The notes beneath the pieces are model-generated. The model did no database searches. It was not told the DNA's origin and saw only the letters and a list, made by a program, of their open reading frames with translations. A stretch of DNA of 63,332 bases, counting the filler, from Octopus bimaculoides (Eukaryota): NCBI RefSeq assembly GCF_001194135.2. It is 5 parts of 5 records of this genome, joined end to end, with 100 filler letters (N's around TTAATTAATTAA, not from the genome) between each part and the next. Parts side by side here need not be neighbours in the genome. Positions count along the whole stretch, not along the records: positions 1 to 19,486 come from NC_068981.1; positions 19,587 to 27,889 come from NC_068984.1; positions 27,990 to 32,837 come from NC_069004.1; positions 32,938 to 61,857 come from NC_068983.1; 1 more part is not named here. One strand, 5' to 3'. Both the position numbers and the translations under genes were made by a program. This document shows positions 13,405-58,022 of this stretch, piece by piece. The number at the start of each line of letters is the position of its first letter. The first letter of the stretch is position 1.

Positions 13405-13499
13405 TTGATTCCCTGAAGATGAATATATGTGGAATTCCAGCAGCTCTTACTTCTTTGTAGAAGAGCTCACATATATTTTGAAACATGTGTAGGAATTAA
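13405..13499 (+). ncRNA. Type I hammerhead ribozyme motif (Penelope-associated), GUA cleavage triplet
   Basis: Helix I ttgattcc/ggaattaa; core CTGAAGA (13413-19); helix II gaatatatgtg/cacatatattt with inner agctctt/aagagct hairpin; GAAA at 13480; self-complementary stem III ACATGTGT; predicted cleavage after 13491. Confidence 0.75.
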
Positions 13500-13798
13500 A
13501 GGAACTTTTATTTATATGCGTCTTGCTCCATTTATTATTATTCATATCTTCTCAAAATGTATCACTTTAACTTGGTATCTCTACCTATAAAACGGCTGTG
13601 ATATCTTGTTTTTTTAGTGTAATTTTGCTACCTCTGGTAACTATTAACGTATTTACATTGTCAAAGGTTTTTTAAAACTGAGATAATATTAATATATATA
13701 TATATATTGATAAAAAAGACAACAAAAGAAAGAAGGAGACCTCGATATTATGTAAATAGAGGAATTTATCTGTAAAAATATGTGACACTTATTCGGTA

Positions 13799-13868
13799 GC
13801 CATGATAAAACTCCGAGTTTCGGATGCCGGGGCGGAAACCCACGTCACCATCTCTTCAGTTATCTGGC
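13799..13868 (-). ncRNA. Type I hammerhead ribozyme motif, GUU triplet
   Basis: Minus strand: gcca-gataa CTGAAGA GATG...CATC c GAAA CTCGGAGT T ttatc-a-tggc. Helix I is 5+4 bp around a bulge; stem III ACTC-G-GAGT. Confidence 0.7.
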
Positions 13869-53077: not shown

Positions 53078-56000
53078 GTAAGGCTTGCAGTATCTTGGGT
53101 AGCTTTAATACATTTCATCTTTCTTTAGAAAAGTCTTTCATTTATAGTTTAAGACAGTGACACTTTCTATGTATAATATCCACATAAATAACATAACTTT
53201 AAAAGTCGTCTCCAAACTAGTCTTCTGGCCATCTTGTGGCGCACAATAGATCTGATCTATCAACTGATTTAAGATGATCGAAAACAACAATGATAACAAC
53301 AACAACAACAACAATAATAATAATACTATTATTATTTTAACGAAAAGAAAGATCATGCTCGGCAAATTATTCGTAGAAGCATAACTCAGATGTTGAATAT
53401 CTTTAAAAATATTAAATGACGAAGATGCTACAACATAGACGCTTTCAAGGCAGATTTATTTGTGCGAAAATGGATACAATAAATATTATTATATTTCTGG
53501 TATAAGGTTAGAGGAAGGAATAAATGTCTTTATATTCATAGTACTAAGGGGAGAGGAGGAAATAACTCCAGTAAATTTCTTGTACAATGGTCGGGAGAAG
53601 AACTTCTATGTATATGTACATATTTTACCAATCTCAGGAGAGAACATATCCAGCTATGTCGTGTTTAAATATGAGGCGATGCACTATCTAATCAATTTAA
53701 ATATGCACAGGATAATGATTATTCTTACTCTCATACATGTAAAGGGTTGTGTGAAAATTGGTGTGAAAAAAGCAAACCAAATTTTCCAGAGTTTTGCCAA
53801 TGTGTACTCCGACTAACACTCTTGAGAAACCTCATGAGAAACAATAAGCCTGAGCAATATATAATAATTAAGTTATATTCAGATATATAAAGCGTTGCAT
53901 CGATTTGATAGATGCTGTGGAAAATTATTTAGTTTTGTGGCTATATCGGGTGTTTTATTATCATAAATGATCGTTTTTTTCCCAACATCATTTCATATAA
54001 TTTCATTTCGATTAATCTCGTTCAAATCTTTAAGCACAAACAGATAAAATGTGCTTCAAATTCCGTACTCTGTTATTCGCTATTGATAATCTAGCAATAG
54101 CAAAGAAACGTCAGGAATATTTGCGTAGTGGAGCTAAGAGACCAGCTAGTTCCGAGGTGTTATTATGGTAGAGACAGAAAAAGACGGGAAAAGACACAGA
54201 AGCTAAATATACTAGGCTTCTTATTATAGAGATAATTGTGTAAATGATCTCCAACACATTTAACATGGTCTATAAACTAACAAAATACTACATAAACAAC
54301 TGCAAAAGTCTAGCTAATGCAGCCACGTATTAGAGAAAAGAATTATCAAAATCTTTAATCAATATCCTCATATTGTAGCCTCAGTGTAAACTGATGATGA
54401 CTTTAGGCAAAAGAGTGGCTGCTCTTGTTGACTGCAAACGATATCACAACAGATTTGTTTTACCAGAGTTCAACTTCTGAATTGACTTGATATCAATATA
54501 TCTCTGATTGTGTGTGTGAGTACGTGCGTCTGTGTGTGTGTGTGTGATGTTTGTTTGTTTGATTGTGTGCAGCATACACCCGTTTCACATTAGTCGTAAT
54601 ATGATCTCAATTCACTCCAAGAATATGCTCCAATTTACATGTGGTGTAATTTCATTAGAAAGTGAAAATTTAGCATTTATGATAAAGAGCTTCAGTTCTC
54701 TAGCCTCAATAGTTTATTGTACACGGAAATATATTCGTGTATACATTATGGGAAACGAACGTCTCTTTCGATTCAGTTTTACAATTCTCTTGTCTAATTT
54801 TATTATCACTTTATACATTTATCAATAGTGTTAGAATATATCACAAGAGGTTATCAACGGATACAATTGCACTTAAATAATTTAGAATATAACAAAGCAG
54901 AAAATTTGCAGCAATACTCAATACCGAAAAAAATACACTAAGGGAGTGATATGCATAGCACGATAAAATTGTTACACTTTGTTAATGCAATAAAATAGTT
55001 TGGTTTACTACTCGGTAAGGACGTTGTGAATAGACAACGCTGTCATTTACCTGAAATGTCGTCGGTTGCTACGAGATGAGGGAAAACGCCATATTTAAAC
55101 CTGAAAGTATGTTCGGTATTATTCTTATCACTTTGTTGCTTGTTATCCTTCATGTCATTTGTAGTTTGTCCGAGATGGTGCTGATTGAGCCAGACTGTGA
55201 CCAAATTCTTTGCTGTCTTTTCGAATTTTAAATCGTACGCCCTTATTTGATTAGTTTCTCCATATTTAGAGATGGCACACTGGGATTTGCACGTGGAATG
55301 AGAAAGTTTGGATGACCAAAAAGCAAAAGATAAAGGATAGATATAGACGATCTGACACAAAAGAAAGCGACGAGCGTATATAAAGTTGGATCGGCAAAGT
55401 TTTATTTTCCAAATGCTGAGTTAGGCATTAAATAAATTAATAAGATAAATAAATAAATAAATCCAAGTTGTTTTGCGAGTTTTGTAGCAACAAAGGTTTT
55501 TTCTCTCCCTATTTGGCTTGTTACTTGTCTTTCAATGGTGACTCTATTATATTGTCACATATATGTGTTGTATGAGTTTGTGTGTGTGTGTGTGTGTGTG
55601 TGTGTGTGTGTGTGTGTGTGCGTGTGTGTGTGTGTGTGTTGTGTGCGTGTTTGTGTGTGTCTGTGTGCGCGCGCGCGTGTATTCTAGGTAGTGTAGCGTG
55701 GTTCCATAATGAAATACGGTGTCCCCACCTGCAATTAATATATAAGTACCAGTTGCCAAAAATACATAAATTTGGTATATCCAATTGTTTCACCGCTATA
55801 TTTGGTGACGATTTAAACCTTGCTCTACCAGAGAAACGGTATGTCACTAATTACCAACTGGGTCCATTTGTCTTTTATTTACATTTTATTCAAACTATTT
55901 TTTACTACATTACATACGTATATATGTATAAATTTTATTCAAACTATTTCTTAGCTACATTATATATGCTATCATGTGAATGAAGAATTACTGTTCCTCA

Positions 56001-57485
56001 CAAAGGTTTATAAAATACAGCTTACAGAATATATTATAAATTTTAGAAATTCCAAAAATACAGGATTACAGCCCTTCATGGCAGTTATAGCAGACAACAT
56101 TGAGATGTTCTTGGCAAACATAGATATTACAATTCTTACATGTAGTACGAGTCTTACTGTCCTTTTTGGGGCCACACAAAGAACATCTTCCTATTTTTTT
56201 TCTTTGGCTGAGGAATCTCAAATGTGTTTGAACATCGTCTACTTTTCTTGTTTCTTTGAGAAATGTTAGAGGAACTAGAAGATTGTTTGCTATGTTCTTG
56301 TTTAGCATTAATTCCAGCAAGTTCCTTTCCTAAGTGAATTAGGCACTCTCTTCTTTTATTCCTGAAAGTTTGCAACTGAAGTTATTTAGCAAGAATGAAA
56401 GCATTCACTGCACCTATATCAATCATGTTGTAGAATATAACCATAGGCCATCTTCGAGTCATTCCTTTCCAAATGTCTGTTCTTACCATCTTATCTATGG
56501 TGTCTACTCTTCCTTTTGTTTTGTTGTAACATGTAATAACTTCAGGTTTCTTTTCAGCATTTTTTGAATCAATTAAAGGCTGAGAGTGAATTGTACTCAT
56601 AAGTGTGACTACATAATTTTTCTTGGGACAATAAGACAGGATAATAGAATCCTTTTGAAATCCAAATATTGCGCTGCTGATTTCTCCTTCTTTTCCATTT
56701 GTGAAAACACTTGGAAGTTCAAATCCTTTGTTTCTAATTGTTCCAACTAAAATAGGTTTCTTACTAAGCAGCTTTCGAGACAATCCTAGGCTTGTAAAAA
56801 GATTATAACAAGTTATATTGCGAACAGTACTTCCAAGTTCTTTTACTAGGTCTTCAACAACTCTTAAACCTTGATTTATCTCTCTCCCTCTTACTGGGTC
56901 TTTTCCAGTGTAAATTTGCATTTTCCAGACATAAGATATTTCACTGTCGCATATTGCGCAAATTTTAATTCCATGTTTTCCTGCTTTTGAAGAAATATAT
57001 ACCCGGAATGGGCAGCACCCTCTGAATGAAACTAATTGTTCATCAACTGTCATGCATGAACTTGGAAGATATCCATCTTGCAAATTCTGATTTCACATTC
57101 CAAATACTTCTCTTATGGGCTCAGATTTATTATCACTTCTCTTTTTGTTCTTGCACTAGCATCATCAAAAAATCTGTTGGAATCTTACACGGCTCATGCT
57201 ATTGTTGAATATTGGGCGGCCATCTTGTTGATTCCGTAACTGTGTGACATTTTCATGTTTAAATTTATAAATATGTATAAGAATAATCAGTCCAATACAT
57301 TTCTTTAGTTCAGAGGGATCAATTACATTCCGTTTATCTTTGTAAACAACATGACCTTTAATATTTGTCCATTTACGAATTATTTTAAGATTCTAGCGCA
57401 TTATGATAGTAAAACATCTTTCAGTGCTATCGCAAGACCTTTCAGTAAAACAGGATGTCAACATTCTTGGCACACAATATTGCAA

Positions 57486-58022
57486 GATGAACATTATTTA
57501 CATTATTTACATTTGACGGATATTTGTCCTCATCTTGTTTGTTGTTAACACATCGTTTCGACTGATATACCCTCCAGCCTTCATCAGGTGTCTTGGAGAA
57601 ATTTCGAACCTGGATTCTCATTCCTAATGTATTTTTGATGTTATTATTATTATTATTATTATTATTATTATTATTATTATTATTATTATTATTATTATTA
57701 TTATTATTATTATTATCATTGCTACTATCATCATCTTCATCGTCATAATGATAATAATAATAATAATAATAATAATAATTATAATTATTATTATTATTAT
57801 TATTATTATTATTATTATTATTATTATTATTATTATTATTCAGGTCACTGCCTGGAATCGAACTCGGAATCTTGGGGTTGGTAGACTGCACTCTTAACCA
57901 CTATGCCATATGCCCGTGGGTATATAAACCGAAACGTTGTGTTAACAACAAACAAGATGAGGACAAACTTCTGTCAAATGTAAATAATATACATAATTCC
58001 TCATCTCTTAAATATAGAACTG
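57486..58022 (-). mobile_element. Composite insert: tRNA-like head, (AAT)n spacer, Penelope-type hammerhead tail, plus inverted partial tail
   Basis: Minus strand 57916-57841 gggcatatggcatagtggttaagagt...gagttcgattcc (A/B boxes), then (aat)n, then hammerhead at 57547-57592; + strand 57918-57990 repeats the tail in inverted orientation. Confidence 0.7.
57547..57592 (-). ncRNA. Hammerhead motif with mutated cleavage triplet (probably inactive copy)
   Basis: Minus strand: gacac CTGATGA a GGCTG gagggtatat CAGTC GAA ACGAT gtgtt. The partial inverted copy at 57918-57946 keeps GAAACGTTgtgtt, showing the ancestral GUU triplet. Confidence 0.6.

Follow-up and report, generated by a model that had tools for sequence, protein, structure and literature searches.

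The window analysed here, a 63,332-nucleotide (nt) stretch of Octopus bimaculoides DNA (assembly GCF_001194135.2; five joined parts, 59.5 kb of called bases), holds part of a contactin-like cell-adhesion gene and ten motifs with the architecture of the minimal type I hammerhead ribozyme. We conclude that the ten motifs are very probably the decaying 3' tails of independently inserted, 5'-truncated Penelope-like retroelements, and that the host pre-mRNA is likely unaffected by them. This class of ribozyme has been known since 2014 and one octopus element is already listed; the window adds further octopus examples.

Motifs were sought on both strands with a type I descriptor demanding 4 or more Watson-Crick pairs in helix I, no more than one core defect, GAAA, a near-palindromic stem III and UH, with one optional extra base permitted at either flank of helix II. 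The scan returned ten motifs, among them all seven of the original prediction, each at or within 7 nt of where it had been placed, and three new ones (35131-35193+, 39153-39238- and 49751-49790-). They are listed here with a truncated copy of one of them, and are referred to below by start coordinate and strand.

13405..13499, + strand: minimal type I hammerhead with intact core CUGAAGA, 8-base-pair (bp) helix I and stem III ACAUGUGU.
13804..13864, - strand: minimal hammerhead, antisense to contactin, with intact core and stem III ACUCGGAGU.
22795..22842, - strand: minimal hammerhead, antisense, with intact core CUGAUGA and stem III ACAGCUGU.
35131..35193, + strand: minimal hammerhead with intact core CUGACGA, 6-bp helix I and stem III AUCGGUCGAU.
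39153..39238, - strand: decayed hammerhead, C3A.
39671..39769, + strand: 5'-truncated copy of the 39153 family (77% over 101 nt), in which just the motif's 3' half is left, with GAAA at 39703.
40874..40910, + strand: hammerhead-shaped motif in the left arm of an inverted pair, with A6U core CUGUUGA and stem III ACGU.
41110..41146, - strand: hammerhead-shaped motif of the 40874 family with A6U core CUGUUGA; right arm of the inverted pair.
46196..46234, - strand: minimal hammerhead, antisense, with U3-A8 swapped core UUGAAAA and stem III ACCGGU.
49751..49790, - strand: decayed U3-A8 hammerhead, G5C, with a same-strand endonuclease-like remnant ~830 nt upstream of it.
57547..57592, - strand: decayed hammerhead in which U16.1 is replaced by A, with stem III ACGA.

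This set of motifs is real and not a product of chance. Local shuffles (100 in all, dinucleotide content being preserved within 500-nt blocks) gave 0.85 motifs on average and 3 at most, against the 10 observed, and motifs with an intact core averaged 0.06 (maximum 1), against 5. The idea that a relaxed pattern was matched by accident in AT-rich DNA can draw on those 0.85 motifs per window and on an occasional shuffled score of 13, and one weak motif may be spurious; since the shuffle mean is 0.85, about one of the five motifs with a defective core could be due to chance. As an account of the set, however, the idea is hardly credible, considering the counts above, the one-sided adjacency to (TA)n described below, and the second copies found within the window for motifs of three families.

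The core is intact in 13405+, 13804-, 22795-, 35131+ and 46196- (the U3-A8 swap being counted as intact), and CUGANGA (or U3-A8), GAAA and NUH are complete in five of the ten motifs, four of which had been predicted originally. One core defect is present in each of the other five: C3A in 39153-, A6U in both 40874+ and 41110-, G5C in 49751- and U16.1A in 57547-, where the cleavage triplet is lost because A replaces U16.1. The claim that every one of the seven predicted motifs carried the core is therefore correct for four and wrong for 40874+, 41110- and 57547-. Together with two further copies that are truncated halves, these defects are signs of decay; a second partial copy of the 57547 family (57918-57997+) has kept U16.1.

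An extra nucleotide lies between A9 and helix II in five parses (13405, 22795, 40874, 41110 and 57547) and is absent from the other five. Helix II is closed by G10.1-C11.1 in six (13804, 22795, 40874, 41110, 49751 and 57547), with an extra base ahead of GAAA in 13804 and 22795, and by G-U, U-G or U-A at this position in the remaining four. The long helix II of 13405+, whose predicted cut falls after 13491, is flanked by a U-U mismatch, that of 13804- is imperfect with one additional C, and that of 22795- has an A-A mismatch beside it. Stem III can pair with itself completely, or at all but one position, in eight motifs, the others being 39153- (6/8) and 57547- (2/4). The self-complementarity that had been predicted for it holds with qualifications: ACUCGGAGU of 13804- is self-complementary at 8/9 positions, ACAUGUGU of 13405+ pairs with itself only with two G-U pairs, and 57547- has ACGA, not ACGU. 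Since 40874 and 41110 are the sole pair to match in pairwise blastn among the ten motifs, about nine families are present. Helices that differ while pairing is kept had been offered as an argument against chance; this does not extend to 40874+ and 41110-, which are arms of one inverted pair with identical helices and so do not represent independent covariation.

The surroundings of the motifs point to the kind of element that carried them. A (TA)5+ tract occurs less than 300 nt downstream of the cut site in eight of the ten motifs, at distances of 68-250 nt, and within 300 nt on the opposite side in none (background 17%; binomial P=2e-5, a value for which the sites are not fully independent, two pairs sharing one tract each). 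In these two pairs, 13405+/13804- and 40874+/41110-, the copies meet tail to tail at one (TA)n; 13405+ reaches its tract 201 nt downstream, where the tail ends, and the tail of 13804- runs to the same tract. Remnants of endonuclease genes lie near two of the ten motifs (13405+ and 49751-):

12730..13215, - strand: broken remnant of a GIY-YIG endonuclease, of the type in Hydra-clade Penelope elements, with one stop and an assembly gap.
50623..50880, - strand: frameshifted GIY-YIG-like remnant with a YIGQTG motif, recognised by eye only.

For the first of these remnants, Pfam PF01541 was matched at E=0.0024, under the curated cut-off, the top Atlas match was a GIY-YIG cluster (0.92), and HMMER found 595 relatives, including P0061 (646 amino acids), which has a DKT motif and a C-terminal endonuclease; a word-based protein search with the remnant gave no match. 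By eye, the remnant and P0061 resemble the Hydra alignment in the available part of the supplement of PMC8557442. Judged by these likenesses, the insertion at 12730-13690 carries a Hydra-type C-terminal GIY-YIG. The second remnant had no Pfam match. At 44955-45161(-) there may be one more Hydra-like endonuclease C-terminus, strongly decayed (tblastn E=0.001).

We propose that Penelope-like copies, 5'-truncated, would have inserted independently and mostly at (TA)n microsatellites. In the parent element, according to the literature, tandem element RNA would be cut by a same-family dimer of the motif, possibly assisted by the element's protein. The copies at the contactin locus stand alone, lie inverted or carry mutations, and would likely have no action on the host pre-mRNA.

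The original prediction, that these are minimal type I hammerheads and that several Penelope-like families supplied them, is supported by their architecture, the adjacency to (TA)n, the adjacent Hydra-type GIY-YIG and their close resemblance to Hydra-clade motifs in print. Minimal hammerheads (min-HHR) were described in the pseudo-long terminal repeats of metazoan Penelope-like elements by Cervera and De la Pena in 2014 (PMC4209133), who reported thousands of solitary copies, opposite-strand pairs and a U3-A8 family. Those in the window share with them the type I topology, the extra base after A9, the short helix I, the palindromic stem III that would require a dimer and the U3-A8 variant, as well as the multitude of unrelated families in one genome, the mostly solitary state of the copies and the close pairs on opposite strands. 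The core of 46196-, UUGAAAA, is the same as that of Schistosoma mansoni family 4 in the same paper, and the U3-A8 swap is a known active covariation (PMC3088659). As far as the accessible text of PMC4209133 goes, octopus is absent among the species of its Table S1 and Fig. S3. The five intact motifs in 59.5 kb, if typical, would be denser than the 2,000-9,000 per genome given there, a comparison that sets one window against genomes scanned with a different descriptor.

The likeness is closer still to the Hydra-clade hammerheads in File S2 of PMC8557442 (Craig et al., 2021), which include Hydra-1_Obim of Octopus bimaculoides. In the portions of that source at hand, (TA)n is listed as the target of Hydra elements, Hydra-1_Obim among them, and some motifs have the extra base after A9 while others lack it. 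The window motifs have in common with them a stem III of 3-4 bp with a tiny or absent loop, a mismatch-flanked helix II, a location that would fall 100-250 nt short of the 3' end, the (TA)n target, inverted truncated copies and the C-terminal GIY-YIG, and ACUCGGAGU is identical to stem III of Hydra-2_aMil and Penelope-16_HM. Unlike the elements in that source, none in the window is full. The Hydra-1_oBim motif differs from all ten, and four short strings from window motifs were not found in the accessible part of the supplement, so the window motifs appear to belong to other families. From the Octopus vulgaris genome, 31 recently active Penelope-like families have been reported (PMC13282606), with the ribozyme unmentioned in the text available.

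A different origin was also considered, in non-LTR retrozymes, whose short repeats lie head to tail, carry canonical hammerheads and give circular RNAs. Molluscs do have retrozymes with type I hammerheads (PMC7229834), and it has been proposed, in the part of bioRxiv 2026.07.22.740005 at hand, that retrozymes derive from Penelope terminal repeats. Nevertheless, none of the 53 tandem-repeat rows in the window (longest period 49) is a head-to-tail repeat covering a motif, and Rfam covariance models gave no hammerhead at E<=10 for the four motifs covered by three local scans, which makes such an origin highly improbable. Over the whole window, no hammerhead appeared among the 150 of 179 Rfam matches listed; those matches were microsatellite-driven microRNA and small nucleolar RNA models, under their gathering scores.

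The host gene is represented in the window by three exons on the + strand, with AG/GT sites, that encode residues ~171-394 of the Octopus sinensis contactin-like protein P0001:

21124..21456, + strand: contactin-like internal exon (first immunoglobulin domain), 89% identical to P0001.
22913..23008, + strand: contactin-like internal exon, identified by homology and AG/GT sites.
24852..25091, + strand: contactin-like internal exon (second immunoglobulin domain), the last found, identified by homology and AG/GT sites.

No credible match to residues 1-170 or 395-1228 of P0001 was found in the window, and the gene likely begins upstream and runs on downstream via long introns, or has exons in N gaps. 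The single cell-adhesion gene that had been predicted is thus present as a contactin-like gene on the + strand, with three internal exons only; the gene start proposed near 6.4 kb was rejected, nothing homologous being found there. The 96-nt exon (22913..23008) is absent from the O. vulgaris model P0002. Only 22795- sits inside a demonstrated contactin intron, 70 nt ahead of the next acceptor, while the other motifs are likely intronic, 13405+ and 35131+ probably lying in long introns. The 22795- relic ends near the expected branch point of the second contactin exon (22795-22913).

Cleavage of the host pre-mRNA by the + strand motifs, as originally proposed for 13405 and 40874, is unsupported, since seven of the ten motifs are antisense to contactin (the sense ones being 13405+, 35131+ and 40874+), no sense motif has a dimer partner in the window, 40874+ is predicted to lie in a hairpin, and RNA of its family showed no ends at 40905/40906. 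By our reading of double-hammerhead geometry, a dimer requires a same-family copy on the same strand to supply the strands of stem III and helix I, and blastn found no such pair in the window. Stem III of 13405+ cannot be closed as a monomer, and its same-family partner was not found there. By prediction, once a sense transcript includes the second arm, the A6U motif 40874+ would pair along its full length with its antisense twin, in a ~190-bp hairpin (-289 kcal/mol). Heterodimers were rejected as well: 46196- and 49751- can pair through their stem III segments, but their helix I strands mismatch, and the sense motifs have stem III of differing lengths.

Should any sense motif cut nascent contactin pre-mRNA and alter its splicing or level, it would be 35131+ acting as a monomer, or 13405+ if another RNA served as its partner in trans. 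The core is intact in each, and helix I is strong (6 and 8 bp, respectively). The best candidate is 35131+, with a predicted cut after 35187; it is the only sense motif that is plausibly monomer-competent. Its stem III could close with 3 bp around a 4-nt loop, the hammerhead fold being predicted at -12.8 kcal/mol against -17.8 for the best fold. The depletion of retrozymes from Xenopus introns (bioRxiv 2026.07.22.740005, in the part at hand) further suggests some cost of intronic copies. On the other hand, the G10.1-C11.1 pair is missing in 13405+ (U-U) and 35131+ (G-U), 35131+ likewise has no same-family partner in the window, and minimal motifs in the literature show no activity singly and slow cleavage as dimers, a lone S. 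mansoni motif having failed to cleave and dimers having cleaved poorly (PMC4209133). A slow cut, moreover, need not stop splicing, since introns cut by a hammerhead are still spliced in mammalian cells (PMC2995048, citing Dye 2006 and Fong 2009, as far as that text was available). Considering these points, cutting of the host transcript with an effect is very unlikely.

RNA ends were examined over 40130-41000, on which ~6% of each of two RNA runs was placed together with two sets of DNA contigs. Each run contributed ~3,400 RNA reads, with a depth peak on the 40874 motif. The ends predicted at 40905/40906 did not appear: at a depth of ~2,100-2,300 reads in the two RNA runs no pile-up was found there, which is a weak test, and the sole pile-up listed on 40130-41000 was at the edge of the compared stretch. 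A comparable result comes from the Anolis Poseidon hammerhead, likewise Penelope-borne, for which the part of PMC11167929 at hand reports no RNA-seq ends at the cut site; that hammerhead cleaves only with the element protein, and its cleavage is dispensable for insertion in vitro. Poseidon was assayed biochemically, while the octopus motifs are known here from sequence. The ultraconserved intronic hammerheads of amniotes in C10orf118 and RECK (PMC3088659, as available) share the position in host introns with the octopus motifs, yet they are conserved mammal-wide, and the C10 ribozyme cleaves robustly with a stabilising pseudoknot, whereas the octopus motifs are repeat-borne, half of them mutated and most antisense.

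Several observations weigh against our interpretation of the motifs as inert Penelope-like tails. Neither 49751- nor 57547- has a nearby (TA)n. The remnant at 12730..13215(-) is inverted relative to 13405+ and linked to it by adjacency only, an arrangement that would fit a 5'-inverted truncated insertion. No Penelope reverse transcriptase was matched by tblastn in the window, as would be expected at 12730-13690 of a 5'-truncated copy, and no paired terminal repeats around an open reading frame were found in the window. Since both are lacking, the assignment to Penelope of the eight motifs with no adjacent endonuclease remnant depends on their shape and insertion context, from which we infer both their origin and, for the whole set, inactivity at the locus. 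As to that inactivity, 35131+ might close its 3-bp stem III as a monomer. The RNA end test took in one of the three sense motifs (40874+), used complementary DNA libraries, which show ends poorly, and had a threshold of a fifth of the depth; moreover, 990 of 993 reads at position 40753 carry the letter of another copy, so that at most 3 of 993 could have come from the contactin locus.

The 40874 family deserves separate treatment. The two motifs are borne by the arms of an inverted pair around a (TA)n (~40808-41213), the arms being 88% identical over 412 nt, and the family is a very abundant repeat: summed contig depth on the motif reached ~1.0 million and 3.0 million, as against 9.5 and 45 for the flank contig, figures that are not copy numbers. 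Uridine at position 6 is probably the family state. Both arms carry A6U, with identical helices, despite an overall difference of 12%; three near-fixed private differences were listed in the element (40753, 40968 and 40978), 40882 not being among them; and the loose-end consensus of related contigs has U6 in both DNA runs. The U6 share itself was not read directly, the listing of differences on 40130-41000 lacking 173 rows. An alternative register of 40874+ that would restore A6 (core from 40882) was rejected by inspection, as helices I and II fail in it.

On the plain reading, a dead A6U motif has been amplified passively. A more ambitious one, in which the family is a functional non-canonical U6 hammerhead under selection in an abundant non-autonomous element, has in its favour the sharing of A6U between the diverged arms, the consensus and the absence of 40882 from the private differences, together with the position of the commonest listed indel in the motif, which falls in loop 2, and the peak of RNA depth on the motif. 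A natural A6C variant, in phage Bcep176, is weakly active and prefers Mn2+ (PMC3088659 and PMC7151607, as available); it is likewise a change at core position 6, whereas the octopus base is U and the motif is a minimal dimer-type one in a eukaryotic repeat. By the same two sources, changes at position 6 lower hammerhead activity. The consensus in which U6 appears also has A in place of U4, a change suggesting that the core is under relaxed selection, and no RNA ends mark the cut site. Considering that Anolis insertion proceeded in vitro without hammerhead cleavage (PMC11167929, as available), a dead motif can amplify passively, and selection for function is quite unlikely. That the family is an abundant Penelope-derived tail with a natural A6U hammerhead as its family state, helices I-III being kept and activity possibly assisted by protein or metal, is itself an unlikely proposition. 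No report of a natural A6U hammerhead was found in the literature searched, with Lunse et al. 2017 outside its scope, and an A6U family was not found in the accessible text of PMC4209133. Exact scans for the 40874 family gave no loci in metagenome contigs, prokaryote genomes or viral contigs. The ~190-bp hairpin of the 40808-41213 arms is also a plausible ADAR editing substrate; places with A>G in 40874-family RNA (9 and 12) were not above those in the DNA runs (12 and 14).

Other candidates and repeats were noted in the window. Occurrences of CUGANGA at 23937-, 33083- and 34188+ were dismissed, a hammerhead not being completed, and a loosened descriptor gained just weak AT-rich matches. Half motifs with GAAACCGGT, seen twice (11968- and 4985-), may be older decayed hammerheads, as may 23937-, in which CUGAAGA is accompanied by a 5-bp helix I match and GAAA is absent. 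Another repeat forms an inverted pair (32956-33390(-) and 33884-34308(+); 80% over 442 nt) with CUGAUGA in both copies and no complete type I hammerhead; its GAAA upstream of the core weakly recalls a permuted form. Among other mobile elements, 26018-27010 holds a non-LTR reverse transcriptase fragment (Pfam RVT_1, E=2e-10) that is not Penelope-like by tblastn, and 56382-57092(-) a transposase remnant (Pfam DDE_Tnp_1_7, E=8e-39), presumably piggyBac-like. Transposon-like open reading frame remnants at 18355-19530(-), 43339-43743(-) and 61386-61905(-) include what look by eye like non-LTR C-termini, and a helix-turn-helix match falls at ~43.4 kb. Copies of one dispersed repeat that resembles a short interspersed nuclear element or a miniature inverted-repeat transposable element lie at 23356-23544, 28332-28506, 29335-29712, 30350-30717, 34814-34909 and 41270-41450, two of them as an inverted pair (90% over 368 nt), and a 23-nt tandem repeat of five copies (96% matches) occupies 15767-15880.

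Hammerhead relics may be dense in the octopus genome, as this window suggests. If the A6U core of the 40874 family proved to be both family-wide and active, it would bear on the open question of what purpose Penelope hammerheads serve. If 35131+ did cut the pre-mRNA of this neural adhesion gene, a host gene would be acted on by a ribozyme that a repeat had brought in.

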